A stretch of 64,000 nucleotides of DNA from a virus (IMGVR_UViG_3300009503_000022:46356-110355), one strand, 5' to 3'. Counted from the first letter of the stretch, positions 33,641-63,835 are shown. Notes: generated by a model from the sequence alone, not told the origin. Translations and numbers: made by a program.

Positions 33641-34606
33641 TTACATCCATACTTTAAAATAAGGATTAGGATCAGATTCTCCATTAGTTATTGCTTCCCA
33701 TATTTTATCATCATTTATTTGATAAATCGGATCAGTCTTTGGTTTACATATCGTTCTAAATTGTTGCCTAAATGGAGTTCCCCTCATTTCAGATTGTCCA
33801 ATTTCATCTACTAAAAATCTATCACCATCTAATATCCTATGAAGTACATCATATTTATGTAATTTAGGATGCCACAAAGTCCAACTGTCAAAATCATGAG
33901 TAAATTGAATTCCTTGATTAGTAAAATTTACCCCTCTTGTTGGAATATTTCCATATCTAATCCTTATTTTTATCTTTGGATAATATCCTCCATAAATACC
34001 TACACCAAAACAATCAGGACATCTAAATGAACCCTGATAATCAGGATCTTGAGCCATAGAATTATCTATAGCTGTTTTTCTATTAACCAAACCTGCATCT
34101 GTATCGTCTACAATTGCATTACCCATCTTAGTACATTTACAAGGTTTTCCTGACCATTTTCGTATATATAAATAAAAATCTTCACCATCATTTTCCAATA
34201 TAGATTGATGCCTTCTTCTTATCTCTTCAAAATAATATTTCATTCCAGTATTCGTTATTAAATTATAACTATTAGATTCTTGAGAAAATGGATCTTCTGC
34301 AAATCTATCAACATTAAAATAATATGAAGCTGGAAAATCATTTATAAATTTTTCTATATTTCCATAACCTATATAAGAAACCCAAAAATAATATACTACA
34401 TCTTCAGGAGTCCATATTGGTTCATTAAATATATAATAATTCTGATTATTAACAGTATCTAAATAATTTTTAGTCATCGGAGTAGGTGAACCATAAACTT
34501 TATAACTTGTTACGCCAGGAATAAAATCCCAACTTATTTTATATTGCCCAGCATTTTCATCTACTTGTATTACTTTAACTTCCGATACAACTATATTAGA
34601 ACTCAT
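33641..34606 (-). CDS. neck / head-closure protein with Zn-binding Cys motifs
   Basis: RKWSG.PC.C...CPDCFG.G..GGY; N-terminal FN3-like segment. Confidence 0.6.
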   Translation of the reverse strand: MSSNIVVSEVKVIQVDENAGQYKISWDFIPGVTSYKVYGSPTPMTKNYLDTVNNQNYYIFNEPIWTPEDVVYYFWVSYIGYGNIEKFINDFPASYYFNVDRFAEDPFSQESNSYNLITNTGMKYYFEEIRRRHQSILENDGEDFYLYIRKWSGKPCKCTKMGNAIVDDTDAGLVNRKTAIDNSMAQDPDYQGSFRCPDCFGVGIYGGYYPKIKIRIRYGNIPTRGVNFTNQGIQFTHDFDSWTLWHPKLHKYDVLHRILDGDRFLVDEIGQSEMRGTPFRQQFRTICKPKTDPIYQINDDKIWEAITNGESDPNPYFKVWM

Positions 34607-34905
34607 TGCTTATTCACCTCATTATTAATCGTAGATTCTGTTTTATTCTTACTATCTAATTCAAATTCCATAGGTCCTAACTTAAATCTAAAATTTTGTT
34701 TACCTAAAACATATATTAAAATCATTATAGTAAATAAAAATGTTATATGCCATAAAATATCCTTTAATTCATTTTTAGGAATATTTACTATAACATACGT
34801 CCATATAATTGCAATAAATATAACTAATTTAACTCTCAAAGATTTCAAATCTCTAATCTCGTTTTTAAATCCATCTGATTGAATAATTTTCTTTATCATT
34901 GTCAC
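34603..34905 (-). CDS. two-TM membrane protein
   Basis: Two hydrophobic segments. Confidence 0.55.
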   Translation of the reverse strand: MTMIKKIIQSDGFKNEIRDLKSLRVKLVIFIAIIWTYVIVNIPKNELKDILWHITFLFTIMILIYVLGKQNFRFKLGPMEFELDSKNKTESTINNEVNKQ

Positions 34906-34915
34906 TCCTTCTATT

Positions 34916-35683
34916 TTATATAGCAGATAATTCTTGTCTCCAGTTTGTTGTTATCGTATTATCATCCCATTTAACTCTATAAAAATTATTATTATGATCT
35001 ATTCTTATTATAGTACCTATTCTATTTGTTCCTATTCTCCTCACTTTTTCCCCTAATTCAAAATTACTAACTTTATTATCTTGATATGTATATTGTCCAA
35101 TCCATTCATTCGGTTGAAACTCATCTTCAAATCTAATTTTAGCTTGCACTTCTTTAAGAATATCTTCAATTTTATTTCTCTCATCTATAGCATTTACTGC
35201 TGCCTTAATTAATTCCCTTTCATCTCTAAAACTATTATCATCTTCCTCTTCTTGTATAAATAAATTATTAGCAGTATCTCTAACTTTTACCAAAGTACTT
35301 ATATGAGTAATATAATTTTCAGATTGTCCTATATCTACCCAAACTTTATTTCCAACTATTTTACGAACTATTCCTGGTTCCATATCAGGCATTGAAGAAA
35401 ATACAACTTTATCTCCAACCTTTAATCTAGCACTTTTAAGCATAGGAACCCATTGTTTTGATTTCGGATCATATACCCATTCGCTTCCTTCAGGAGGAGG
35501 AGTCGTCGGTTTTGCAGGCACTTGCGATTCTATCTCTATACCTTTATCTCGTATAACTTTATTAACCAATTCAATAGCATCTTCTTCACCATATCCATAT
35601 TCATCTACAAGTTTTCTTTTTATAGCATTAACCCCTATCCCTCGATTATACCATTTTATTATATTAGATTCTAATCCTGGCAT
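34916..35683 (-). CDS. modular protein with SH3/KOW-like barrels
   Basis: LKVGDKVVF...; FELGEKVR...GTIIR...YRVKWDD. Confidence 0.6.
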   Translation of the reverse strand: MPGLESNIIKWYNRGIGVNAIKRKLVDEYGYGEEDAIELVNKVIRDKGIEIESQVPAKPTTPPPEGSEWVYDPKSKQWVPMLKSARLKVGDKVVFSSMPDMEPGIVRKIVGNKVWVDIGQSENYITHISTLVKVRDTANNLFIQEEEDDNSFRDERELIKAAVNAIDERNKIEDILKEVQAKIRFEDEFQPNEWIGQYTYQDNKVSNFELGEKVRRIGTNRIGTIIRIDHNNNFYRVKWDDNTITTNWRQELSAI

Positions 35684-35697
35684 AATTAAATCCTCCT

Positions 35698-38600
35698 TTA
35701 ATAATTTAATATTTTTCTTAAATAAGAAGCAGCTTCAAATATCTCTTTTAAATCTAATTCTTCTATAGTTTTATCCTTTTCCTCTAAATATGCATTTAAT
35801 TCCATTTCTATTATCTTCTTTGAATTATCATTTATTTTACTTGCTTTAACTTCATTAAAATATTCTTTTAATAAATTAAAAGCCGCCTTTAATTTAGGAT
35901 TTTTAATAAATAACCAAGAAAATGGAGCAATAAAATCTATAATCATCTTTAATGTCTCTTTAATTCCTGCTTCTTTCTCAATTCCATAATCTAATCTAGT
36001 CTTCAATTGAAATTTATCTTCTTCTTTACTTCTAATCATTAACCATTTTCTATCTTCCATCGGTATTAAAGTAAATTCTCCCTTTACTTTATCAGTATTT
36101 AATCTAAATTTTCTTTTCTTATCTGACCATTCTAATATCTCTGCATCTCCAATTGCATAAGTTTCAACTATTCCTGCTCCATATTCACCTTTAGGTATTT
36201 CACCTTCAAAATAAATATAATCTACTGGATGATCCTCTGTTTCTATAAATAAAACCTTTTGTCCAGGTTCTGGTATTTTCCTCGTAACCCCTGATTTTAA
36301 AACACCATCTTTAAATATTCTCCAATCAAAATGTTTACCTGCCTTTTTTGCATAATGCAATTGAATCCCTGACTTGCCTTCTTCTCTAATTTTAGGTTTT
36401 GGTTCAGGAGTAATATCAAAATCTCTTTTTTTCTTATATTCTTCCAATCTATCATCTTCTTGAGCTTTTTTTAAAAAATATTCGTCTTCAACTTCTTGTA
36501 AATATGTAAACTTATTAAATATCTTAACACTTGATTCCAATTTCCAAGAAGCAGTTTTCAAAAATTTAGTAGTCTTATTTTGAATATCTTTTATTATTGC
36601 AGTAACACGAGGAGGTGAAATACCTAAAATCTCTGCAATCTCAACTTGACTATATCCTGATACTAACAAATTAAATACCTTCTTACCTACATCTGTAAGA
36701 AGATTTAATATTTTATCAAATAAATCATTTACTATTACTTTTTCCTCAGGTGAATCATACTTAGATTCAATAATATTCTTTATTTTAATAGGAACATCTT
36801 TATCTTCATATATAACATCTTCTAAACTATATGCTATTGTATTTACTATTTCTTTTTGAAGATATAAATCTCTTATTTCATCTTTTACTCTACCATCTAA
36901 TTGGTTATATAACCACGTTGAAAATTTTCCTTTTTCTCTATCATAAGTATCTATTGAATGTAAAATAATTTCATCAATAATAGAAGAAGCATCATAAAAC
37001 CCTGCTTTTCCTAATTTATTTTCAAATGGATACGCTAACCTTTTTAATTCAGGATAAATTTCGTTAAATATTTTTTCATCTTTCGTTTCTTTATATCTAA
37101 TCACTTTTTCATCTAAATCTTCTATTGATGATTTTTTATACAACTTTTTAAGTACTTTATCTATTTTAGCATCTTCCTTCTCAAAATCAAATAATTTATC
37201 TTCATCTATTGGTAAACATACTAATCCTGTTTTTCCTGATAAACTATACGGAACTCTTAATCCACCTGCTCTATGTAACGTACTAGTATCTAGCCTACAA
37301 GTATTTTCCTTTTTCGTAACTCCAGTAGTCAATCTTTTATCATTTTTATTTTCTATATATTCTTCTAAAGCTAATTTAATTGCTGTTCTAGCTTCATCTA
37401 CATCTATTTCTTTTTTTAATATACCATAAACGTGAAATCCTTTTGAACCAGAAAATACTATCTTAGTATCAACTACATTATCCATTGTTTCTATTAAATC
37501 TTTAACCTCAAAAACTATATCCTTTAAATCATCCCAAGAAAATCCTTCTTTTGGATCTAAATCAACATATAAAAATGGAGTAGTATCCTTAAGAGAAAAA
37601 TGCCATTCAACATTTCTACCATTATTTAATTTATCAAAATCTTTAATATTTATCGGTTTTCCCTCTATCTTTCTTTGAACTATAGTATCATCAACTTTCT
37701 TAAATAAAGTCACATCAAGATCATACTTTAAATAAGTTTCTATAATATCATCTTTAACAGTATCATAATACAAAAAAATCTCACCTTCATTAAGTCCTTC
37801 TTTATAAAATTCATTTGGTTCTACTATTATAGTTTCTGGATGCTTTGGTTTATAAGCATAAATTAAACTACTTTCTATTTTCATTGATTTACCTTCGTGA
37901 TAACAAGCATTTTGTTCAAATTCATTAGTATAAATTGTCCATCTATTTCTACCTTTATTTTTGGATTCATAAAGTGCTTTATCTGCTTTAGTAAATGAAT
38001 CATCTATATTAGATTCTAACGGAGCAGCTCCTAAACTTATAGTCACTGGTATTTCAGTTTGTTTAGTTTCTTCTTCAACTGTATTTCTTATCAATTCCAA
38101 TAATTCTTTTAAATCCTCTTCATCATCTAATTCAATAAATATTACAAATTCTTCTCCGCCCCATCTAACTATATTTTCTATATCAAGACTTTTAATTAAA
38201 TCGGCAACTGTCTTTAATACCTCGTCGCCTTTATCGTGACCATATTCATCATTAATTTGCTTAAAATGATCTATATCAGTTAAAATTATATAATTATTTT
38301 CTTCTAATAATCTTTCTTCATTATCCTCTAACCAATGCCTTGAATACAACCCAGTTAAAGCATCTGTATATAATCTTTTTTTCAATTCCTCGACTTCTTT
38401 TTGTAAATCTTTATTTTCATCTATTTCTGATTCTATCTTTCTTATTTCAGTCGGATGAACTTCAGATATTATAGATCCATCTTCTAAAGGTTTATCCCAC
38501 TTGACTACATAATCAACATCATAAATTGTTCCTCCTCGCTCTTCAGGAGCTATATCTATTATTGTTCCTGTATTATCAAAATTAATTGCCTCTATTTTAG

Positions 38601-41600
38601 TTCCCTTTTCATAAACTCCTTTTCGCGATTGAAAAGCTTTCAAACGAATCACTTTTTCATTTTTATATATATTCTCATCAAATTTTTTCTTTCTTAAATT
38701 TTCATCTAATGTTTCTACTACATTATAATATTTATCTATAATCTTATATATTTTCTCTGGATTTCTTAAAAATACAAATTCATCTCTTATTTTTAATTGA
38801 TCAAAAGTAGTTATTTCCCCTTCTTCTATTCCATGTCTTTTAAATAAACTTGAATAACATTGTTTTCTAACTAAATTTACATATTCGCTTTCTTTCTTTA
38901 AAAATTCATCTAATTCAGGATATTGCTCTTTAACATCTTTAATTTTCTTTTCTAAAACATCTAAATATTCTATCATTTTATTCCAATAAGGTTCATAAGA
39001 ATCGTCCCATATAACTATCTTATTTTTTCCTGTATTCTTACCTAATACAAGAGATTTGTGAGCATCTGTAGGAATTTTTCCAATCCCTACAGTTGCTGTA
39101 TGTCCTGTATTTTTTAAATAAATATCTATAAATTGCTGTCCTAATTTTTTGGCTTCTTCTATCGTAATAGGAATACTTATAAATATATTATCTCCACCTT
39201 CAAATATTACCTCTCCATTATACTTAGTAATTATTTCTATTATTTCTTTATTAGCATTTTTTATTTGATTAGATATATTTTTTGCTACTTCTGTATCTTT
39301 ATCATAAATGGCTTCTTCTACTCTATCTCCAATATCATCACCATCAATGGCTATATAAACAAGATTACCTTTTTCTGATCTCTGTTTACCAATTTGAGCT
39401 TCTTTATGAAAACACTCTTTTCCTTCTGAATACAATACTATTCTATCTGGTGAAATAGGTCCAACAACCACAGCAGTTCCTGCTATTCTTAAAGTATCTT
39501 CACCGGTTATATCTTTATAATAAACACCCCATTCCGGATCGTGTCTACTTTTTAGTCCTCTAGGAATTTGCTCATCATGTTTCCAATATAAAAATTTTCC
39601 TTCTACATCATCAACATAAGCACCTAAATCGACTAACATTGCATAATCTGGTAATAAATCTAAACCTGAAACATCTACTTTATAAATATATTTACCAGGA
39701 AACTTTCCTGGTTCTTTAGAAACAAAAACAGATTCTTCTGGTAACCAACCATAATCAAAAAATTGTTCCCCAGCTTCTGTTAATCCTTTTGTTTTTCTAC
39801 CCACTAAACCCTCTTTCAAAATTATTTCTGGAGGAACATTTGTACTATGATATAAATATTTAATAGCTTTCTTTTCTAATTCTTCAATCTTTTTCATTAC
39901 TCCTTTATGAATAAGTCTAGGTTTCATATCCTTTATTTTTTGTAAAACTTCTTTTTTTAACTCATATAACATCTTAATTTCATCACCAGATGGAGAATAT
40001 TTAATTGACCAATTTATTTCTCTTACGAGTTCCCATAAATTCCAAATTATTAAATCAATAGTTTCACCTGTTGCTTTCATATTTAAAATATCTTTAAAAT
40101 CTTCTTCTAATTCACTTATAGGTTTACCAATTTGAGCTTCTTTATGAAAATATTCTCCTAACTTCATTTGTTCTCTTAATTCCCATATTTTAAATAATTC
40201 TGATTCTTGAGCTAAACTTGGACTCCATTGCATTCTTAATCCATCAAAATGAATCCAATCAACTATTTTATCTATAACATAAAATTTTTCAAAACCTTCT
40301 TTTGAATAAGCTTCTTCACCTTGTTTAATCAATTCTTCTATTTTCTTTATGTTTCTTTTTATAGGTTCTACTTCAACTCTTGTTGTGCCTCCAGTTTTTA
40401 ATTTATTTAAATGATAAATTAATTCTTCTAAAATTTTATCTAATTTATCATCATCATAAATACCCTTAGATGCATCAATATAAACTTTTCTTAAATCAGT
40501 AAGAAATATTGCTTCTTTGTTTAAAAAAGCTCTTAATTGTTCTAACTTATTATTATTTCCATATTGAAAAATATTTGCAATTCTAGACATTAACCAACCC
40601 TTTTCCTCAAATCCAGGTATTTGCTCAAGCCTTAAATCTTCTGGAATTACTTTCTTATCCTCTCTATATCTTTCTATTCTTGGTTTTCTAATTATCCCTG
40701 TCATTTTATCTTCTATTTGTATCCATTTATTATCTTCAAACTTATATGCAGGTCCTTTTTTTATATTTACTTCTTCACCTTGTACTTCTACAATACAAGG
40801 TTCTTTAAAAGGATCAACCCAAATTCTACCATCTTCATCTTCAAATACTTTATTTCTTTCTGCCCATTCTATAAATTCTAATCGTTCCTTATCAGTAAAC
40901 CCTGTCCCAACCTTACCATTAAGCCTAAATATCCCTTCTTTATCTCTAAATGAAGTTAATATTGCGCCCATCTGTTCAGGATGCTTTTTACTTCTTTCTA
41001 CTGCAACTACAACTAAATCAATAGATAAAATCGGTTTTACCTTAACTATTTTATTATCATAATAAATTATAAGTCCTTCATAACCATATTTTTGAGGTTG
41101 TACAACCTTATCCCATAATTCGTCTACATCATTTAAATCAGCATTTTCAAAATATTCTGCTGGCTTTACATACTTTCCTTTGCTAAACAAATTTCTTAAT
41201 CCACTAATTCTATATGATAAATCTTTATCTTGCCAATCAATTCCATCTATACTTATAATATCAAATACTATTATCCTTATTCTTTCTTCATCTTCTTTAG
41301 TTTTCGGAGCCTTTAATAAACTCTGAGATTTTAAATAACTTAATGGAATACCATCTTCACTAACTCCATAAATTTCTCCAACTCCTATAAATTCTTTTAA
41401 CGGTTTATTTTTTAATAATTCTGTAATTTCATCCGTAACAGGTAAATCATAACGAATTGTACCTGCTCTAGTAACTGTTATTGTTCTACCATCTTTATAT
41501 TCTATTCCAACTATTTCTCCATCTAATTTTACCGATATTGTAAATTTCTTACCTTTTAATTTTTCTCTCAATTCATCTATAGTATAAAACTTCATCGACA

Positions 41601-41676
41601 TTCTTTCTTTATAATCACTTACTATAGATGAAATTGGATTTTCTTTATCTATTTCTTTTTTAAATGCTAATATCAT
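35698..41676 (-). CDS. 1992-aa polyvalent protein: ATP-dependent DNA ligase, ART-like, mCpol, SH3-like, GGDEF, LigD primase-polymerase, sigma-70, LigD phosphoesterase
   Basis: KLDG/FDII/EGLII/VKVKP/VGTGFT/REDK (~40600-41600); YLYHST..ILKEGL (~39430-39865); IDGDDIG/GGDN (~39005-39365); DALTGL/DIDHFK/GGEEF (~37930-38375); DLDP/SGSKGFH (~37150-37860); FSTW/EIAEILGIS (~36560-37125); Q.H..HFDWR/EDHP..Y/GEYGAG (~36030-36450). Confidence 0.9.
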   Translation of the reverse strand: MILAFKKEIDKENPISSIVSDYKERMSMKFYTIDELREKLKGKKFTISVKLDGEIVGIEYKDGRTITVTRAGTIRYDLPVTDEITELLKNKPLKEFIGVGEIYGVSEDGIPLSYLKSQSLLKAPKTKEDEERIRIIVFDIISIDGIDWQDKDLSYRISGLRNLFSKGKYVKPAEYFENADLNDVDELWDKVVQPQKYGYEGLIIYYDNKIVKVKPILSIDLVVVAVERSKKHPEQMGAILTSFRDKEGIFRLNGKVGTGFTDKERLEFIEWAERNKVFEDEDGRIWVDPFKEPCIVEVQGEEVNIKKGPAYKFEDNKWIQIEDKMTGIIRKPRIERYREDKKVIPEDLRLEQIPGFEEKGWLMSRIANIFQYGNNNKLEQLRAFLNKEAIFLTDLRKVYIDASKGIYDDDKLDKILEELIYHLNKLKTGGTTRVEVEPIKRNIKKIEELIKQGEEAYSKEGFEKFYVIDKIVDWIHFDGLRMQWSPSLAQESELFKIWELREQMKLGEYFHKEAQIGKPISELEEDFKDILNMKATGETIDLIIWNLWELVREINWSIKYSPSGDEIKMLYELKKEVLQKIKDMKPRLIHKGVMKKIEELEKKAIKYLYHSTNVPPEIILKEGLVGRKTKGLTEAGEQFFDYGWLPEESVFVSKEPGKFPGKYIYKVDVSGLDLLPDYAMLVDLGAYVDDVEGKFLYWKHDEQIPRGLKSRHDPEWGVYYKDITGEDTLRIAGTAVVVGPISPDRIVLYSEGKECFHKEAQIGKQRSEKGNLVYIAIDGDDIGDRVEEAIYDKDTEVAKNISNQIKNANKEIIEIITKYNGEVIFEGGDNIFISIPITIEEAKKLGQQFIDIYLKNTGHTATVGIGKIPTDAHKSLVLGKNTGKNKIVIWDDSYEPYWNKMIEYLDVLEKKIKDVKEQYPELDEFLKKESEYVNLVRKQCYSSLFKRHGIEEGEITTFDQLKIRDEFVFLRNPEKIYKIIDKYYNVVETLDENLRKKKFDENIYKNEKVIRLKAFQSRKGVYEKGTKIEAINFDNTGTIIDIAPEERGGTIYDVDYVVKWDKPLEDGSIISEVHPTEIRKIESEIDENKDLQKEVEELKKRLYTDALTGLYSRHWLEDNEERLLEENNYIILTDIDHFKQINDEYGHDKGDEVLKTVADLIKSLDIENIVRWGGEEFVIFIELDDEEDLKELLELIRNTVEEETKQTEIPVTISLGAAPLESNIDDSFTKADKALYESKNKGRNRWTIYTNEFEQNACYHEGKSMKIESSLIYAYKPKHPETIIVEPNEFYKEGLNEGEIFLYYDTVKDDIIETYLKYDLDVTLFKKVDDTIVQRKIEGKPINIKDFDKLNNGRNVEWHFSLKDTTPFLYVDLDPKEGFSWDDLKDIVFEVKDLIETMDNVVDTKIVFSGSKGFHVYGILKKEIDVDEARTAIKLALEEYIENKNDKRLTTGVTKKENTCRLDTSTLHRAGGLRVPYSLSGKTGLVCLPIDEDKLFDFEKEDAKIDKVLKKLYKKSSIEDLDEKVIRYKETKDEKIFNEIYPELKRLAYPFENKLGKAGFYDASSIIDEIILHSIDTYDREKGKFSTWLYNQLDGRVKDEIRDLYLQKEIVNTIAYSLEDVIYEDKDVPIKIKNIIESKYDSPEEKVIVNDLFDKILNLLTDVGKKVFNLLVSGYSQVEIAEILGISPPRVTAIIKDIQNKTTKFLKTASWKLESSVKIFNKFTYLQEVEDEYFLKKAQEDDRLEEYKKKRDFDITPEPKPKIREEGKSGIQLHYAKKAGKHFDWRIFKDGVLKSGVTRKIPEPGQKVLFIETEDHPVDYIYFEGEIPKGEYGAGIVETYAIGDAEILEWSDKKRKFRLNTDKVKGEFTLIPMEDRKWLMIRSKEEDKFQLKTRLDYGIEKEAGIKETLKMIIDFIAPFSWLFIKNPKLKAAFNLLKEYFNEVKASKINDNSKKIIEMELNAYLEEKDKTIEELDLKEIFEAASYLRKILNY
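39384..40150. repeat. 29-bp perfect direct repeat (39384-39412 and 40122-40150) encoding FHKEAQIGK
   Basis: gtttaccaatttgagcttctttatgaaaa at both positions, 738 bp apart, in frame. Confidence 0.9.
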
Positions 41677-41834
41677 TTTGTCAATATTATTAACATTGGA
41701 GTAGTATCACTTGGTACAACTGCAGTTATTACCCAACCTGCATCCACAAGCGTTTTTAAATCACTAACTGATCCATCAACTGTATCTTTAGTATTACCTT
41801 GCCTATCTGATTCTACTATTTTTACATCAGCCAT
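41673..41834 (-). CDS. small hypothetical protein (53 aa, not in track)
   Basis: MADVKIVESDRQGNTKDTVDGSVSDLKTLVDAGWVITAVVPSDTTPMLIILTK; GGAGGAG RBS; ATGA overlap with the polyvalent gene. Confidence 0.65.
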   Translation of the reverse strand: MADVKIVESDRQGNTKDTVDGSVSDLKTLVDAGWVITAVVPSDTTPMLIILTK

Positions 41835-41879
41835 TTCGCTCCTCCTACATCATAATTTAAATTAGTCAATATATTTATA

Positions 41880-42056
41880 TTATTCGAAATTTAAATTTTC
41901 TTTTCGTCTAAATTCCAATTTCCTCTTATATCTTCTTGCTTGAGAAATAGTAGGAAAACACTTCTTCATACCCTCGTCTGTAATTACACACCAACGTCTT
42001 CCTTCTTCGCCTTCTTCTTTCTTTATCCTTAATTTTTCTTGTCGTAACCAATACAT
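41880..42056 (-). CDS. small protein (58 aa, not in track) related to the N-domain of 60783-61208
   Basis: MYWLRQEKLRIKKEEGEEGRRWCVITDEGMKKCFPTISQARRY... vs YIRKKDGEYCVYSEKGRSFGCYPSRKKAEERL. Confidence 0.6.
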   Translation of the reverse strand: MYWLRQEKLRIKKEEGEEGRRWCVITDEGMKKCFPTISQARRYKRKLEFRRKENLNFE

Positions 42057-44117
42057 TTATATCTCCTCTTTAATCAATTCTTTAGCTGCATTAACAAATA
42101 AATTAAAATCATCAACTTTAACTTTTTTACTTATTCTAGAAAATATCTCATCCATATATCCTTCAATAATACTATCATAATTTATATCTATTTTTTTATT
42201 ATCTTCAGTCGCTATTTTCTTTAATAAATTAGCATCTTCAATAACAGCATTAACAATATCGTCTAATTGAATATTTGCTTTAATAAATTCTTTAATAGAC
42301 GATTCTTTTTCAATAGTATCTTTAATCTCTTTTTTTATTTTCTTTTGAGTTTTATCATCAAATTCTTTTTTATACTTATCCTTTGCTTTTAAAAATTTTT
42401 CTATTTCTTTATCTAACTCTTTTTTCTTTTCTTCAGTTACTTCTTCATCTACCTTAATTATTTCAGTTGGATGAACTTCAGTAATTGTTTCTCCTGCTAC
42501 TGGAGTATCCCATTTTATAATATAATCTATATCTCCAGGTTTTTCATCATTTTTATAAATTACATATCCCATAAGCCCATTCGTCTGTAATTGAACTCTA
42601 TCATATACTTCAAATTCGTCTTCTTCTATAGCTGATGTTAATAATAATCTATATTTCATTACATTTTCATCTTTATACTCGTTCATTTTAAATTTAAACT
42701 CAGTATTATCATCTAAAGATGCAGTCACTATTCCTAATCTTGGATCAAATCGTCTATAAGTATAAATATCAGGACTATTTTCAAATTGAAATTTATCACC
42801 TAATTTTAATTCACTAAACTTAACATATCCTTGTTTTTGATATATTTTATCGTAATCTTGAATAGATTCTTTTTTCTTCATCTTTTTATCTTTTTTTATT
42901 TCTTTATCATAAGATTTTTGTAATTTTTTTTCAGATTTAGATTTATCTATTTTCCTTTCCATATTCATATTAACACCCTCGGATAATTCTGGTAATTCTC
43001 TAAATTTAACAGTAGAATTATCAGAAACATTTAAAGTATCTATATTAATAGTTGTATCTGATTTTCTATTTAATGAAGATCTTAAACTTGCTATTTTCCT
43101 CAATCTATTAGGATATTTCTCTAATAAATCTTTAATATTGCCTCTTAAACCAGTTACATCCCCTTCTATATTTGTAACATTTCCTTCAATATAAGAAACA
43201 TCTCCTTTTATGTTAGATACATCTCCTTTTAAATAAGAAACATTTCCCCTTATATTAGATACATCTCCTACAATATTTGAAGCATCTCCATATATATTTG
43301 AAGCATCTCCATATATATTTGAAGCATCTCCATATATTTTAGATTTATCCCCTGTTACATTTTCATCATTAATCAATCTACTTTTTTGTGATTTTATTCT
43401 TAATGAAGACTTTTTCGTTCTTTTAAATTTTTCAAATAAATCTGGATTTTCACTAATAAACTTATTTACACCATCCATAAACCATACATGCCACCCAGAA
43501 CCTTCTGTTTCTAATTTCTTTTTTATACTTTCCCAACCTTCTTCAAAATAATATTCTGCTTCTTTTTGAGCTTTTTTATCACCTTTATAAGCAGGATCTA
43601 TAATTAAACTATCCATAAGATCAATTGCATATTCTTGTATTGGAGTTTCAAGTTTAATAACATCCGATTTTCTTAATTGCATATTTCCTCCTAAATTTGC
43701 AAAAGATTTCTCTAATACATCTTGAGGATTTTCTATAACCATTTTATCTCGAGGAACTTTTTGCTCTTCAGGAAATACAAAAAGATCATCTTTTAAAATA
43801 GTATCATTTTGAGATTTCCTTTCTAATAATCTTTTTACAAAATCTCTCCATTCTTCCTTATTTTCTTCTACCATTCCATCAAATATTTCTTTTGCTTTAT
43901 CTTCTGTAACATCATAAATATTCATAAAATACTTTACTATTTCTGAATCTATATCATCGGCAATTTTTTCTAAAGTAAATTCGCTTCCTGTATCTAATTC
44001 AGGATTAGATGATATATCAGGATTAGTTTTAAAATAATCCAACTCGTGAAATTTTCCTGAATCATGTGGATATTTAATCTCATCAAATCCACCTTGAGCT
44101 TTACGTCTCAAATTCAT
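42057..44117 (-). CDS. modular polyprotein-like protein (heptad solenoid, SH3-like modules)
   Basis: Eleven xxxGD[AV]S-type heptads; EVHPTEI module; multiple L-x-[KR]-x-[AS] linkers. Confidence 0.7.
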   Translation of the reverse strand: MNLRRKAQGGFDEIKYPHDSGKFHELDYFKTNPDISSNPELDTGSEFTLEKIADDIDSEIVKYFMNIYDVTEDKAKEIFDGMVEENKEEWRDFVKRLLERKSQNDTILKDDLFVFPEEQKVPRDKMVIENPQDVLEKSFANLGGNMQLRKSDVIKLETPIQEYAIDLMDSLIIDPAYKGDKKAQKEAEYYFEEGWESIKKKLETEGSGWHVWFMDGVNKFISENPDLFEKFKRTKKSSLRIKSQKSRLINDENVTGDKSKIYGDASNIYGDASNIYGDASNIVGDVSNIRGNVSYLKGDVSNIKGDVSYIEGNVTNIEGDVTGLRGNIKDLLEKYPNRLRKIASLRSSLNRKSDTTINIDTLNVSDNSTVKFRELPELSEGVNMNMERKIDKSKSEKKLQKSYDKEIKKDKKMKKKESIQDYDKIYQKQGYVKFSELKLGDKFQFENSPDIYTYRRFDPRLGIVTASLDDNTEFKFKMNEYKDENVMKYRLLLTSAIEEDEFEVYDRVQLQTNGLMGYVIYKNDEKPGDIDYIIKWDTPVAGETITEVHPTEIIKVDEEVTEEKKKELDKEIEKFLKAKDKYKKEFDDKTQKKIKKEIKDTIEKESSIKEFIKANIQLDDIVNAVIEDANLLKKIATEDNKKIDINYDSIIEGYMDEIFSRISKKVKVDDFNLFVNAAKELIKEEI

Positions 44118-48274: not shown

Positions 48275-49255
48275 TTACACAATTGTAAACTTGGTAATAC
48301 CAGCGGTATTGTGAATACCAATACCAATCTGTTCCCAACCTACTATATCATACTGATTTTTTGGAATATTATCAAATATCTTAACTTCAACTGCTTTCCT
48401 TTCTGGAATTCTTCCTAATTTATCAGGTGTCGTAAATACATATACTGTTTTTGCAGGACATCTTGTAGTTACAAGCATCCTTGCTCCATATATAGAACCA
48501 AACAACCCAGTTTCAACTATTGTATTCAACGAAACCTGATCTAAATCTGTAGAATTCCACTTTAAAATATCTGCATATTGCTCTGGATTCATCATCACTC
48601 CACCAACAATTAACTGATTTGCTAAGATCTGCTTATATGCATCTGCAAGAGCATATCTAGTTACTGAAGAAGCAGTAAATGGAGTATTAGGTCCATTTAC
48701 GACTGCTGCCTCCATAACTTTAACTATCTCATCATCTTCCGCAATTGCCATAGCAATAGCAACCCTCTCTTTACCTCTATCAAATGCAGGATATCTCCTG
48801 ATTTGAATTTCTTCCCATTTTAATTCATGATCAATTGAAATTGGAAATGTAGGGAATTGCACCCTCTTTATATTTGCTTGAAATCTAGGAGCCTCTCCTC
48901 TTGCTGCAACTACTACTGCTCCAAATTCTGGAATATCCAAATCATAAATTGGAAATTCCCCTTGAGGTATTTCATCTACCAGTAATACCCTATTTCTTCC
49001 AACTGCTACATAATCTAATCTACTCTTTAGAGGAACCTGCATAGCAAATGCAACCCTCTTTAAACCATTAGGTCCAGTAAATATAGCATTAAAAGCTTTC
49101 TCAGCTTTTTCAATCATCGCAGATGTAGGAACTACTGGCGATGAAGCTGTCCTTGAAAATCCATCTTCTCCAAGAACTGATTCAGAAATTTTTAATAAAT
49201 TTTTAATAAACTCGTCTTTCTGTCTAGAAGATAAATTACTTAATTTCCCTATCAT
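48275..49255 (-). CDS. major capsid protein (HK97 fold)
   Basis: AMQVPLKSRLDY..VGR...LVDE.PQGE.P.YD; GLFGSIYGA; WEQIGIG; follows protease and decoration genes. Confidence 0.85.
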   Translation of the reverse strand: MIGKLSNLSSRQKDEFIKNLLKISESVLGEDGFSRTASSPVVPTSAMIEKAEKAFNAIFTGPNGLKRVAFAMQVPLKSRLDYVAVGRNRVLLVDEIPQGEFPIYDLDIPEFGAVVVAARGEAPRFQANIKRVQFPTFPISIDHELKWEEIQIRRYPAFDRGKERVAIAMAIAEDDEIVKVMEAAVVNGPNTPFTASSVTRYALADAYKQILANQLIVGGVMMNPEQYADILKWNSTDLDQVSLNTIVETGLFGSIYGARMLVTTRCPAKTVYVFTTPDKLGRIPERKAVEVKIFDNIPKNQYDIVGWEQIGIGIHNTAGITKFTIV

Positions 49256-57796: not shown

Positions 57797-60145
57797 CTAC
57801 TTAAATAAATTTAATTCATTATCTATATTCATCAATTCATCTTTAGATACAATATATTTACGATTAAATCTTGAATCTCTTACTAAATAATTTCCATCTT
57901 CTTTTTTCTCTAAAATCTTTACTTTAAGATTACCTTGATCTGTAATTAACATAGCTTCAGAATTAATTTTTAAATCTTGCGTAATATCAATCCCAACAGA
58001 TTCAGGCTTAGTAGTTGGATAAGGTCCAAATACTTGAGATGGAACCATATCCCTATTTTCAAATAATACAGAAACATCATCTGGTTTATTATATGGTTTA
58101 TCTGACTCGTACATAGTTCCATATACCTCTTTCATAATATCATCTACAATCTTTTCATCTAATTCTGGCCTTTCTTTTTTCAAATCCTCTCTTTTCCAAC
58201 CTTTTTCTTTTACTATTTTTATTAATTCTTTACGTTCGTTTGGTCCAATATATTCTTCTTGTCTTTTCAAAGACAAATCTCTAAATCTTCCAGTTCCTCT
58301 TGGAGGTAAATCTTCTACTGTTTCAACTTTATCTTCTGGAAATCTCATTTTATGCCTAATTAACCTTTCCTCATCTGACAAAGGTCTTCCACCTCTACCA
58401 GGCCATATTCCTCTTCCGATACCTCTGCCTTTTCCCCAAGGCCCTGTCCCATCAGGAATTCCTGGTATTATACCTGATTCTTTATTTAATGAAGCTTCTT
58501 TAATTATAGAATCTGGATCTCTTCTTATTTTCTCCCAATCTATCATATCAATTGGTACATATTCACCTGCATCTATATCCCATATCGCTAATTCATGAGA
58601 ATAATATTCTGGCCAATACATTGCTTCTTTACCATTTTTTAAAGTAACTATATCAACACCATCTAATTCTAACGTTTCTATATCAAAAACCTTAGTCCCT
58701 GCTTCTTCACTAGTTTTTTCCCAATCAATCTCATCTAGATCTACAATTCTATTTGTTCCTATTTCTGTAAAAATATGACGACCTACAAAGATATCATATT
58801 TAGCTCCTTTTTCATATAATCCATAATTTCCATTTTTTAAAGGGACTTTCCAACCTGTTTGTAGATCTTCAATTGATTCTATTTTTTGAGATTGTTTTTG
58901 TAATGAAGCTATAGTTCTAAAATCTAAATCCCAATTTCCTTTACCATACTTTTCATCCATATATTTTCTAATTAAATCTAAATATTCTTCTTGAATTTCA
59001 TAATATATATTATGAGACAATAAAATCATAACTTTACCATCTTTTTTTGTAACACTAATAACTTTAACATCAGGTTCGAATCTATCAATAAATTCTTGTA
59101 TTATTGCTTTATCTTTTATTAATTCTTCTTCTCGTGATTCTTTTTGTAATGAAGATTTCTTTTTAGCTTTCTCAATTGCTTCATCAGCATACTCTTCCAT
59201 AAGCTCATCATCTAATTTGTATAAAAATTCTTCCCACATTTCATTAGTAAATTCTGGATATTTTTTAAATACATATTCCTTTATAATAGGAACTGTTTCA
59301 TAAATAACATCTAGATAAAACGCACCTTCAGGATCAATTGTATCTACAGGATCAACTTTAGTTATTTTCTTAAAATTAATAACCACATCACTAACAGCTT
59401 CATCTATCATTACCCATTCATCTCTACTCAATTGAGATTTTTTGTTTAACGAAGATTCCCTTTCTGTTTCAAAAAGTTGAGAATAATAATTCTTCCACCA
59501 ATCTAAAGATTCCAAATCAGATTCATATCGTGTAAGCATATTAATTACTTCATTACGAATTTCTTTTAAATCGTGTCTAATTTTTTCTACATATCTAACT
59601 ATTTTATTAGCCATTCTTCTAGCTTCATCTAAATCTCTTATATTCTTTTTAAGATCTTCAATAAATCTTCGTTTTTCCTCATCATCAACTTCACTATCCT
59701 TAATTTCATCAGCATATTCTAAAAATTCTTCTACTTCATATAAAAATCCTTGTATAGAATCTAAATCACCAATTATATATCCAAAATCTGGTTTTATTAC
59801 AAACCAACCACCCATTCTTCCTTCTTGATACCAATCTTCTATCCAATCATATTTTATAAGTAAATACTCACCCAAACTTTCAACTCTTCTTGAAGCTTCA
59901 TATATTACTGGATCTTCATCATAATATTCTATTTTATTTAAAATTTCTTCAGGAATTTCAAGACCATATACTTTTATATCAAATTCAAAAGAATTTTCTA
60001 CATGAGCACCAATTCTATCTGCAATACCATCTCCTATATAATAAATTAATTCGTCTTCGCTTATATCTTTTAAATCTCCTAATATACTTTCTATCTCTTT
60101 TTTTCCTTTTTCTAACTTTTCTATTAAAAATTTTAAATCATCCAT
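57797..60145 (-). CDS. modular polyprotein-like protein with four SL-x-K-x-S linkers
   Basis: SSLNKKSQ, SSLQKESR, ASLQKQSQ, ASLNKESG; duplicated LKNG...IDWEK module; PDGTGP Gly/Arg motif. Confidence 0.7.
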   Translation of the reverse strand: MDDLKFLIEKLEKGKKEIESILGDLKDISEDELIYYIGDGIADRIGAHVENSFEFDIKVYGLEIPEEILNKIEYYDEDPVIYEASRRVESLGEYLLIKYDWIEDWYQEGRMGGWFVIKPDFGYIIGDLDSIQGFLYEVEEFLEYADEIKDSEVDDEEKRRFIEDLKKNIRDLDEARRMANKIVRYVEKIRHDLKEIRNEVINMLTRYESDLESLDWWKNYYSQLFETERESSLNKKSQLSRDEWVMIDEAVSDVVINFKKITKVDPVDTIDPEGAFYLDVIYETVPIIKEYVFKKYPEFTNEMWEEFLYKLDDELMEEYADEAIEKAKKKSSLQKESREEELIKDKAIIQEFIDRFEPDVKVISVTKKDGKVMILLSHNIYYEIQEEYLDLIRKYMDEKYGKGNWDLDFRTIASLQKQSQKIESIEDLQTGWKVPLKNGNYGLYEKGAKYDIFVGRHIFTEIGTNRIVDLDEIDWEKTSEEAGTKVFDIETLELDGVDIVTLKNGKEAMYWPEYYSHELAIWDIDAGEYVPIDMIDWEKIRRDPDSIIKEASLNKESGIIPGIPDGTGPWGKGRGIGRGIWPGRGGRPLSDEERLIRHKMRFPEDKVETVEDLPPRGTGRFRDLSLKRQEEYIGPNERKELIKIVKEKGWKREDLKKERPELDEKIVDDIMKEVYGTMYESDKPYNKPDDVSVLFENRDMVPSQVFGPYPTTKPESVGIDITQDLKINSEAMLITDQGNLKVKILEKKEDGNYLVRDSRFNRKYIVSKDELMNIDNELNLFK

Positions 60146-61208: not shown

Positions 61209-61396
61209 TTTTCTTCCTTTAGAATACCTTCTATATATTCTCTAAACATTTTATATTCCTTTTCACTATACGATCTTAAATGAGGAAAAAGACTTAATAA
61301 AGTTTTATCCAAATCTTTTCCCTGATTTAAATATTCCTCTTTTATACTATCTAATAAAGATTTATGATTATTATTGTTTGATTGTCGTTTTTTCAT
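61205..61396 (-). CDS. small hypothetical protein
   Basis: ATGA overlaps at both ends. Confidence 0.55.
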   Translation of the reverse strand: MKKRQSNNNNHKSLLDSIKEEYLNQGKDLDKTLLSLFPHLRSYSEKEYKMFREYIEGILKEEK

Positions 61397-62745
61397 TTGA
61401 TCCTTATTTTTGTTCTATAATCTATATCGGATTTCTTTAATATTTTTATATCCTCTTCTGATACTTGAACTACTCTACCATTTTCCAATTCAACAACTAT
61501 TTTACCCAAATCGTCGGTAATATCTTTAATAATTCCTCTATCTCCATTTTTATAAATAATATTATTATGCACTATTTTATCTTTCAACATTCTAACCTCA
61601 GCACCAAGATATTCTCTCCTCTTTTTCGCAGACGTTATTCCATTATTTAATTCCTTTTTTGCTATTTTTTTATTAATTAAAGATGATTTCTGATATATAT
61701 CATAAAAATCACTTGGTAAATCAGATTCATCACAATATATATCTACTTCATCATCTTCTTTTGTAACTTCATCTGCTACTTTTTCTAAAAACATATCATC
61801 ATTTAAATGTGCTTCTTTTAATTTAAACCATTTTTCATCTTCTTCAGGATCTTGTTCTGACCAACCAGAAAATATCTGATCTATATTCTCATTCCATTGT
61901 CCAGTAAGAGGTTGTCTATAATATATATCAACATCTGTCCATTCTTCATCATAAACTATAATCTTAGTTTCAATTTTCCTATCAAAACCTATTAAATTAG
62001 CATAATATGTTTGAGGAAATTCTTGACCTTCAGGATATTCTATAGCCTTTTTTTGCAAAAATGAATTTTTAATTCCTAAATTTTTTAAATTTCCATAAAC
62101 TTTAATTTCTACAAATTCAGCTCCTGGATATTTTTCTAATAATTTTGGTTTTAAATCAAAAACTCTATCAGATATTTTATCTAATTCTCTTTGCGTCAAT
62201 GCTTTAGTTGCTGATTCTATTCCAACATAAACTACATTATCAATTAATCTAACAAAAGCATTATCCAACAAAGGTTCATTTAATCCTAACACTTCATTTA
62301 CAGTAGGATTTCTTTTACTTACTTTATTAAATAAATTTATCAATTCTTTACCAAAAACCTCAATTGCCTTTTCTTTTCCTATTCTCTCTATTAAATTACT
62401 AAATTCATCTTTCGTATATAATAATGCCGATATATTCTTTGCTTCCATATTTCTTTCACACGCTTTACATAACTTACCTATCTTTTCTCTAGCTATTCTT
62501 ATAGTACCTTGTTTTATAAACCTATCTAACTCTTTTAATTGATCAATAATCAATTCGATTTCTTTATCTGTTAACCCCAATTCCTCTCCTTTTTCTCTTA
62601 CTTTATCATAATCAAAATCATAATAACTCTTTTGAGTTTTAGGATCAACTTTTACAAATTCATCACAAGCCCATTCAAAAAGATTTGCATATTTATCTTT
62701 TTTCATAAACTTACTCTCCTTTTTTAAACGTCCTTCCTTCATCAT
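61393..62745 (-). CDS. modular protein with linker motifs and C-terminal SH3-like barrel
   Basis: LKKES, SFLQKKA, SSLINKKIA. Confidence 0.65.
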   Translation of the reverse strand: MMKEGRLKKESKFMKKDKYANLFEWACDEFVKVDPKTQKSYYDFDYDKVREKGEELGLTDKEIELIIDQLKELDRFIKQGTIRIAREKIGKLCKACERNMEAKNISALLYTKDEFSNLIERIGKEKAIEVFGKELINLFNKVSKRNPTVNEVLGLNEPLLDNAFVRLIDNVVYVGIESATKALTQRELDKISDRVFDLKPKLLEKYPGAEFVEIKVYGNLKNLGIKNSFLQKKAIEYPEGQEFPQTYYANLIGFDRKIETKIIVYDEEWTDVDIYYRQPLTGQWNENIDQIFSGWSEQDPEEDEKWFKLKEAHLNDDMFLEKVADEVTKEDDEVDIYCDESDLPSDFYDIYQKSSLINKKIAKKELNNGITSAKKRREYLGAEVRMLKDKIVHNNIIYKNGDRGIIKDITDDLGKIVVELENGRVVQVSEEDIKILKKSDIDYRTKIRIK

Positions 62746-63217: not shown

Positions 63218-63835
63218 TCAAAATCTCCTTTCTAACCTATCAGGATATTTTTTTAATAAATCTTCGATATCACCTCTTAAACCAGTCACATCACCTTCTA
63301 CACCTGTAACATCACCTCGTATACCAGAAACCTCTCCAACTATATTAGATACATCTCCTTTTAAATGAGATACATCACCAAACGTATCAGTTACATCACC
63401 TTTTATGTTAGATACATCACCTTCTATACTAGATACATCTCCTTCTATATTAGATACATCACCTCTTATATTAGATACATCGCCCCTTATATTAGATACA
63501 TATCCTTCTATATCTGATGCATCTCCCTTTATATTTGAAGCATCTCCATATATATTTGATACATCACCTCTTAAATTAGATACATCACCTTCTATATATA
63601 GATCAAACGGAGAACCTTCTATATAAGCTACTTCTCCTCTTATATTAGATACATCACCTTCTAAATAAGAAACATCTCCCCTTATTTTAGATACATCTCC
63701 ACTTATATTTGATGCATCTCCTTTTATATTCGAAGCATCTCCCCATATATTAGACTTATCTCCTGTTACATTTTCATCATTAATCAATCTCCTTCTTTGC
63801 GATTTTATTCTTAATGAAGATTTTAACCAATACAT
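63218..63835 (-). CDS. heptad-repeat (xxxGD[VA]S) beta-solenoid protein
   Basis: About 24 heptads; MYWLKSSLRIKSQ leader. Confidence 0.75.
   Translation of the reverse strand: MYWLKSSLRIKSQRRRLINDENVTGDKSNIWGDASNIKGDASNISGDVSKIRGDVSYLEGDVSNIRGEVAYIEGSPFDLYIEGDVSNLRGDVSNIYGDASNIKGDASDIEGYVSNIRGDVSNIRGDVSNIEGDVSSIEGDVSNIKGDVTDTFGDVSHLKGDVSNIVGEVSGIRGDVTGVEGDVTGLRGDIEDLLKKYPDRLERRF

Follow-up and report, generated by a model that had tools for sequence, protein, structure and literature searches.

A 1992-codon reading frame in the head region of an uncultured phage: a candidate capsid-loaded polyprotein with DNA-joining, signalling and transcription domains

What purpose could be served by seven recognisable enzymatic or regulatory domains that are joined in one polypeptide and encoded among the structural genes of a phage? 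The question is raised by a 64,000-nucleotide stretch of viral DNA (IMGVR_UViG_3300009503_000022:46356-110355), referred to below as the window, which forms the final 64 kb of a 110-kb IMG/VR record that comes from an uncultured hot-spring phage as a metagenome contig and is estimated to be 76% complete. On the minus strand of the window, a single open reading frame (ORF) of 1992 codons runs for 5979 nt without a stop codon or frame break, just as an original prediction for this DNA had claimed, and its product (P0001) is called the giant protein here. The features that are established are its domain content, its intact motifs, its position in an operon, the statistics and conservation of the motif at its linkers, and the reshuffling of its modules in relatives. 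Read together, they point to a cargo polyprotein that would be loaded into the phage head and cut by a protease, a reading to which we would give a probability of roughly 0.55.

Domain content of the giant protein

Per-domain profile searches and structure prediction, the check that the original prediction had proposed, recovered the ligase, mCpol (minimal CRISPR polymerase), GGDEF, primase-polymerase, sigma-70 and phosphoesterase domains that it had named, through Pfam and NCBIfam matches and intact motifs. At the N-terminus, a DNA_ligase_A_M match (residues 31–204, E 1.5e-11) is followed by an OB domain (235–341), which together make up a minimal ATP-dependent ligase (31–341) that is 52% identical to the ligase of the relative G002 described below. 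The mCpol domain (774–889, E 1.1e-18) scores well above both of its cut-offs (68.1 bits vs 26.4 for PF18182, and 52.1 vs 40 for NF033576), and its DGDD and GGDN motifs align to those of Panoptes OptS over the whole domain. Likewise, the GGDEF domain (1103–1245, E 9.9e-31) reaches 107 bits against a cut-off of 23.8. No RxxD inhibitory (I) site occurs anywhere in residues 1085–1269 of that module; such a site upstream of GGDEF is common, but not obligatory, in diguanylate cyclases. The LigD_Prim-Pol match covers 1362–1515 (E 4.1e-13), with the alignment to a relative extending the primase-polymerase back to residue 1277, while the LigD_N phosphoesterase match covers 1773–1871 (E 1.8e-16), and TIGR02777 spans 1744–1885. 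The sigma factor match is marginal though reproducible, since it exceeds the TIGR02937 (sigma70-ECF) cut-off at 1535–1701 (45.4 and 49.9 bits vs 42.9) but stays under those of Pfam (r2 at 21.0 vs 24, and r4_2 at 17.8 vs 25.7). Catalytic motifs are intact throughout, namely KLDG at 50, DGDD at 778, GGDN at 827, GGEEF at 1173, DLDP at 1372 and SGSKGFH at 1409, together with the phosphoesterase signatures H-x8-H-x-D-x-R at 1774 and EDHP at 1814. Among solved chains, those closest to the modules are diguanylate cyclases, the phosphoesterase (PE) and polymerase (Pol) domains of LigD, and the mCpol of Panoptes OptS.

The stretch at 605–760, which had been called ADP-ribosyltransferase-like (ART-like), has no Pfam match, and the call holds at the level of the fold. 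Its AlphaFold model reached a pLDDT of 90.9 on an alignment of 44 sequences, and ADP-ribosyltransferase-superfamily structures made up the entire top list of Foldseek and nearly all of the VIA-align list. Matches included KptA/Tpt1 (Z 7.1, root-mean-square deviation 2.0, 75 residues aligned), CARDS toxin (6.7), scabin (6.2), pertussis S1 (6.1), DarT (5.9), Arr (5.5) and diphtheria toxin, and a language-model search also pointed to this superfamily. The Z values are moderate and the family is unanimous, so the fold is supported, and ADP-ribosylation would be a predicted activity. Across the 44 homologues, one Gly and one Asp never vary and one His hardly does, and no invariant Glu was found there when an H-Y-E or R-S-E triad was sought. 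An H...D arrangement, as in Arr, would be a possible alternative. Among 1.8 billion representative proteins, the module has 77 homologues, mostly stand-alone proteins of 140–175 amino acids (aa); a few lie within long proteins that also possess ART-PolyVal, NUDIX or BspA-type repeats.

The remaining modules are less readily placed. The helical modules at 390–604 returned no family, no solved relative and one marginal match among the 1.8 billion representatives. For the beta-barrel module at 931–1084, a word-based search matched nothing besides the giant itself, and the model (pLDDT 72.4) matched generic KOW/Tudor barrels; with so moderate a model and such generic matches, the module is given no functional assignment.

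A linker motif shared with the capsid protein

Almost every module of the giant is closed by a motif of the form hydrophobic-x-[K/R]-x-[A/S], as in FLNKEA, FHKEA (twice), LEKKA, FLKKES, LYKKS, FLKTA, FLKKA and IEKEA, and all of the linkers that the original prediction listed are present. When the motif was counted as [LFI]-x-[KR]-[KEQRT]-[AS] against 300 composition-preserving shuffles, it was found 9 times in the giant (shuffle mean 2.1, maximum 7) and 27 times in the other head-region proteins (mean 6.8, maximum 15), compared with 9 times in tail proteins (mean 8.5) and 11 times in the remaining genome (mean 15.3). It is thus enriched 4–5 fold, and only in the giant and the other head-region proteins, several of which bear it repeatedly or near their N-termini. 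Of the ten strict matches in the giant, nine fall outside the domains, in the stretches that join them; one is part of the phosphoesterase active site, where it is presumably buried.

The same motif also marks points at which maturation cleavage would be expected for independent reasons. In the major capsid protein, residues 65–70 read G-[LF]-[KR]-R-x-A followed by F or Y, and this is conserved in five relatives; in a sixth (G002, L003:9983-10768), the capsid ORF lacks the propeptide of ~70 residues and begins at the 69/70 boundary. A second conserved site, F-x-R-x-A, lies at 33–38. Moreover, where the ART-like and mCpol modules have stand-alone homologues, these start no more than a few residues from the predicted cuts. 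From the motif statistics and this conservation, we infer that the motif may be the recognition site of the prohead protease. The claim of a cut precursor has therefore gained comparative support, in the motif at the capsid propeptide boundary, at the end of the protease domain and in its head-only enrichment, while the cleavage itself would still be a predicted event.

Three other head-region proteins may be mentioned here. The prohead protease has a C-terminal extension of ~480 residues past FLKKA, with EKPKTEKEEE repeats, SLRRKA at 545 and SIERKA at 649, and this extension may be a fused scaffold. A 782-aa protein without a family match (57797–60145, minus strand) has four near-identical S-L-x-K-x-S motifs (231–237, 331–337, 413–419 and 551–557), and from its sequence it looks like another multi-module head cargo protein. 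Finally, a 450-aa protein (61393–62745) has three sites of the S-L-x-K-x-S type, one of them at residue 7.

How such a protein might be used can be sketched in a few conditional steps. The structural genes and the giant would be translated together, and the prohead would take up the giant. The head cargo of phage T4 is characterised by a capsid-targeting sequence and by gp21 cleavage; the giant shares the cleavage motif of its capsid protein and protease, at the level of sequence only, and the candidates for an uptake signal are its conserved C-terminal tail and/or the beta-barrel module that it has in common with a 686-aa neighbour. The tail, of 89 residues, could be a capsid-targeting or scaffold-like peptide. 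Inside the prohead, the protease would cut at the linkers to free about ten independent modules, which would exit the capsid with the DNA and act in the first minutes of infection. The ligase, primase-polymerase and 3'-phosphoesterase, the activity set of LigD, could heal or join broken or linear genome ends and serve in circularisation; the sigma module could redirect host RNA polymerase; and the ART-fold module could modify a host target, as T4 Alt does. The mCpol and the feedback-insensitive GGDEF could flood or replace host cyclic-nucleotide pools, possibly in answer to Panoptes-type guards. Late synthesis, packaging, cleavage, ejection and all of these biological roles are proposals.

A further and more tentative idea is that the giant amounts to an infection starter kit in one protease-cut chain. 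It would then comprise the first virion-delivered sigma factor, two injected cyclic-nucleotide synthases that overwrite second messengers, and a free-standing LigD set that rejoins nuclease-cut genome ends, with the linker acting as a general “load and cut” code for module swapping by recombination. In that case, mCpol could resupply the decoy nucleotide that is watched by Panoptes-type guards, and the GGDEF module without an I site could force high levels of c-di-GMP. A 29-nt exact repeat at two of the linkers (Table 1) suggests such module swapping between phages by recombination.

Genomic setting, relatives and alternative readings

The genes of the region all lie on one strand, in the order portal, 753-aa prohead protease, major capsid protein (related to that of Bacillus phage G), several small proteins, the 686-aa protein, the giant, two proteins of 255 and 321 aa, tail sheath and baseplate. 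The placement of the giant in a structural module, as originally claimed, is borne out by this order, whereas the label of “neck genes” is an assumption, since the 255- and 321-aa neighbours have no family match. The start codon of the giant overlaps the stop codon of a small ORF upstream (ATGA), which argues for translational coupling within the structural operon. No separate promoter was seen for the giant, in a place where promoter and terminator scans were uninformative and gave fewer promoter-like sites than shuffles. The coordinates of these features are collected in Table 1.

Table 1. Modules of the giant protein and associated features, with positions counted from the first letter of the window
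Feature	Position	Strand	Remarks
Whole ORF (P0001)	35698..41676	-	1992 codons; unbroken in contigs of two runs
Module 1, residues 1-389	40510..41676	-	ATP-dependent DNA ligase (nucleotidyltransferase + OB), KLDG at 50; terminal linker FLNKEA
Module 2, residues 390-514	40135..40509	-	helical; terminal FHKEA
Module 3, residues 515-604	39865..40134	-	short helical; terminal LEKKA
Module 4, residues 605-760	39397..39864	-	ADP-ribosyltransferase-fold domain (model and fold matches); terminal FHKEA
Module 5, residues 761-930	38887..39396	-	mCpol palm domain, DGDD and GGDN; terminal FLKKES
Module 6, residues 931-1084	38425..38886	-	tandem small beta-barrels (KOW/Tudor/SH3-like); terminal KIES
Module 7, residues 1085-1269	37870..38424	-	GGDEF diguanylate-cyclase domain, GGEEF at 1173, no RxxD; terminal KIES
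Module 8, residues 1270-1516	37129..37869	-	LigD-type primase-polymerase, DLDP and SGSKGFH; terminal LYKKS
Module 9, residues 1517-1709	36550..37128	-	ECF-like sigma-70 (regions 2 and 4); terminal FLKTA
Spacer, 29 residues, 1710-1738	36463..36549	-	between motifs FLKTA and FLKKA
Module 10, residues 1739-1903	35968..36462	-	LigD 3'-phosphoesterase; terminal IEKEA
C-terminal tail, 89 residues, 1904-1992	35701..35967	-	resembles the C-terminus of the last slot ORF in relative G002
Direct repeat of 35 nt (29 nt exact), copy 1	39384..39418		encodes FHKEAQIGK
Direct repeat of 35 nt, copy 2	40122..40156		738 nt (246 codons) from copy 1; the pair brackets modules 3 and 4
Small upstream ORF, 53 codons	41673..41834	-	TGA stop overlaps the ATG of the giant (ATGA)
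686-aa neighbour	42057..44117	-	partial paralogue of the giant: beta-barrel module (420-557), linker IEKES/SIKE (predicted cut at the slash) and helical tail in common
Major capsid protein	48275..49255	-	GLKRVA/F at 65-70 and GFSRTA/S at 33-38 (predicted cut at the slash), both conserved in relatives
Prohead protease, 753 aa	49814..52075	-	protease domain ends in FLKKA (268-272); LKKA in two relatives

The 686-aa neighbour has a weak match to a “minor head protein” PHROG. It also shares runs of heptapeptide repeats, GD[AV]SNI[xG] in ~12 or more copies, with a 205-aa protein encoded 19 kb away (63218–63835, minus strand); the runs are 49–65% identical and have a common SSLRIKSQ leader.

Searches with the capsid protein yielded seven related IMG/VR contigs. 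In G002, whose capsid protein is 81% identical, the equivalent slot is flanked by homologues of the giant's neighbours. Upstream, the 686-aa homologue is found beyond a few inserted genes that include one for a radical SAM/SPASM enzyme; downstream, homologues of the 255- and 321-aa proteins directly adjoin. The slot itself holds three coupled ORFs, the first encoding an intein-split ligase fused directly to PrimPol (primase-polymerase), the second a 410-aa protein, and the third an mCpol followed by ~900 further residues that end in a tail similar to that of the giant. Between close relatives, modules have thus been shuffled, fused and split, as their sequences indicate, and the N-terminal ligase and C-terminal tail are fixed. 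In G002 (L014:10267-13329 and L003:4866-6923), the intein that breaks the ligase carries an HNH domain (Pfam Intein_splicing, residues 70–454). In addition, the alignment of the protease is interrupted by ~1.2 kb directly after its SMGC motif, which suggests a second intein.

More distant relatives, G003–G005 (capsid protein 58% identical), have no giant; what their corresponding region encodes includes glycosyltransferases, a methyltransferase and a NUMOD3 endonuclease. They do encode a 660-aa protein with a beta-barrel module and a linker, LKSRLDYGxxxxA (compare LKTRLDYGIEKEA), in common with the giant and its 686-aa neighbour. The giant probably arose from this family of 660–686-aa head-region proteins through serial insertion of enzyme cassettes, and the 29-nt exact repeat around a cassette of 246 codons would be a trace of one such insertion. 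No joint lacking the 738-nt cassette between the FHKEAQIGK repeats was seen among the Logan contigs compared, which is no evidence of its absence because contigs drop rare variants. Other apparent joints among these contigs were rejected as spurious, with sides of 21–22 nt. The 660-aa proteins (L019:5955-7937, L020:5474-7453 and L021:5509-7488) begin with MK[LV][FY][HY]GTTD...HGL, recalling the H-G-T start of ART domains; their N-termini matched the ART-like profile with an hhalign probability of 13.7% over 45 columns, a weak lead only.

A full-length relative of the giant was found neither in a search of 5.8 billion proteins nor in IMG/VR or GenBank phages, the GenBank matches being to GGDEF only. 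For the phosphoesterase module, the best database matches (43% identity) are themselves other giant proteins, P0002–4. The first of these, of 2752 aa, has a ligase at its N-terminus, a phosphoesterase at its C-terminus and a PrimPol in between; in P0003 and P0004, DJ-1/PfpI and 2H-phosphoesterase domains occur in addition, and all three bear [FL]-S-K-R-A linkers. Moreover, the gene for P0002 directly follows those for terminase and portal, and this portal belongs to the same PHROG family as that of the phage studied here. A comparison of homologous architectures, another of the checks originally proposed, therefore shows a module order that varies in G002 and a ligase, PrimPol and phosphoesterase set that is shared with P0002–4, and the class of polyproteins appears to recur in uncultured large phages. 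The portal gene adjacent to P0002 (L022:4246-7362) encodes 1038 aa, with its portal match split around residues 344–722; that segment matches thymidylate-synthase, PhoH and terminase PHROGs and is probably an intein or an inserted domain.

Several points weigh against a packaged and cut cargo protein. Packaging, cleavage and ejection are predictions from sequence, for a phage that is uncultured. The motif is short and was defined post hoc in linkers that are K/E/A-rich anyway, and the KIES sites on either side of the GGDEF module are a poor match to the consensus. Pfam and PHROG detected no anchor of the MuF, portal or metallopeptidase type in the 1992 residues, and a search for Ku (PF02735) found none in the 110-kb record, whose completeness is estimated at 76%. 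As a precedent, the prohead protease of SPN3US mostly trims propeptides from N-termini and does not free a series of enzymes (PMC10052503). Finally, the slot of G003–G005 is occupied by separate genes for glycosyltransferases, a methyltransferase and a homing endonuclease; with such ordinary accessory genes in distant relatives, location alone is weak evidence, and the slot may simply collect accessory genes.

That last point leads to the alternative that survives best, although we consider it unlikely: the giant could be a moron-like, multi-enzyme accessory protein of a hypervariable head–tail slot that stays uncut in the cytoplasm, acts there during replication in DNA repair and signalling, and is never packaged. 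The missing anchor domain and the accessory genes of G003–G005 suit it, as does the radical SAM/SPASM gene in the slot of G002. So do two further sigma-70/ECF-like matches, located away from the structural genes, which imply that sigma factors are not virion-specific here. These lie outside the window (G000:C1:18235-18573 and 37325-37777), the first with several stop codons, and suggest a multi-sigma transcription programme. An accessory protein of this kind would, however, leave unexplained why the linkers copy the motif of the capsid maturation site and of the protease domain end, and why the motif is enriched in the head region only; moreover, the giant is translationally coupled to genes of the structural operon, and the analogous P0002 directly follows a portal gene.

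Less likely again, in our view, is that the giant is packaged and ejected as one uncut polyvalent protein of 230 kDa, in the manner of the N4 virion RNA polymerase, with the linker serving as a flexible spacer or recombination joint. Some polyvalent proteins do travel uncut (N4 virion RNA polymerase, TraC1; PMC5512222), and the 29-nt exact repeat shows two of the linkers as recombination joints. Yet the linker equals the conserved boundary motif of the capsid propeptide, the modules occur elsewhere as separate proteins whose ends coincide with the predicted cuts, and G002 encodes the content as three separate proteins, all of which favour cutting. A chimeric assembly, or several genes fused by artefact, the natural suspicion for a metagenomic contig whose closest relative has three ORFs in the slot, is highly improbable, given the frame without a break, an even G+C of 0.27–0.28 along the ORF (27% for the record), a protein on record from two contigs, and Logan contigs from two hot-spring runs that carry the ORF unbroken (X1, a single contig of 9138 nt over 34165–43302 with zero differences; X2, two overlapping contigs with 2 differences). 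The two runs are possibly the source samples, so they speak for a consistent assembly and not as independent support.

If the giant is indeed cut and ejected as cargo of the head, what phages bring into a cell would go well beyond DNA and a few internal proteins, and one gene would supply a modular, recombinable enzyme set to repair genome ends, take over transcription and manipulate second messengers. With a sigma factor delivered by the virion, early genes would be controlled by a new route, and the mCpol and GGDEF domains borne by the phage would be candidates for counter-defence roles. The linker provides a concrete candidate cleavage code with a cognate protease, and testing it in vitro requires no phage culture. 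Moreover, as the class appears recurrent in uncultured large phages (P0002–4), a demonstration in one member would inform many.

Comparison with known systems

In the literature, no paper was found on LigD-bearing phage polyproteins, virion-packaged sigma factors or protease-cut ejected polyproteins, and neither a published description nor a cultured-phage counterpart of the giant was found. The original prediction knew of no such combination of domains; its kind is not wholly unprecedented, however, as GGDEF, ART and PrimPol domains are on record in the polyvalent proteins of phages and conjugative elements (Iyer, Burroughs, Anand, de Souza, Aravind 2017, PMC5512222). Like the giant, those proteins join many unrelated effector domains in one phage polypeptide that is encoded with late or virion genes, and their delivery with the DNA for early action has been proposed (PMC5512222). 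Unlike them, the giant has no detected MuF, portal or zincin-peptidase anchor; its DNA ligase, LigD phosphoesterase, mCpol and sigma factor were not found by a term search of PMC5512222; and the motif that recurs between its modules matches the site of capsid maturation in this very phage.

LigD, in which ligase, polymerase and phosphoesterase activities (LIG, POL and PE) act with Ku, is matched by the giant in all three activities with their catalytic motifs, and the LigD PE and Pol domains are among its closest solved relatives. The three domains are non-contiguous in the giant, however (1–389, 1270–1516 and 1739–1903), with mCpol, GGDEF, sigma and other modules between them, and their setting is viral and structural, with no Ku in the incomplete record. 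Similarly, the Panoptes protein OptS, an mCpol cyclic-dinucleotide synthase (PMC12657218, PMC12657230), resembles module 5 in its palm domain with DGDD and GGD-type motifs, whereas the mCpol of the giant is phage-encoded, fused in a polyprotein and without a visible adjoining 2TM effector partner; for OptE, the neighbours gave no relevant Pfam match, and no dedicated S-2TM-beta search was run.

T4 Alt, a packaged and processed ADP-ribosyltransferase, is a direct precedent for one module. More broadly, the internal proteins of T4, with Alt, and the ejection proteins of SPN3US and phiKZ are non-structural proteins that are loaded into the prohead, trimmed by the protease at a motif shared with the capsid and ejected (PMC10052503, PMC5694885), and the giant is likened to them from its sequence. 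The SPN3US ejection proteins, cut by the prohead protease, are a precedent for bulk cargo as well (PMC10052503). The T4 protease recognises L/I-x-E, and the motifs of others differ, whereas the motif of the giant ends in A or S after K or R. Furthermore, these proteases mostly trim N-terminal propeptides, whereas the giant would release about ten modules in series. Relative to these precedents, the serial release, the A/S-type motif and a cargo that holds the full LigD set, mCpol and a sigma factor would be new.

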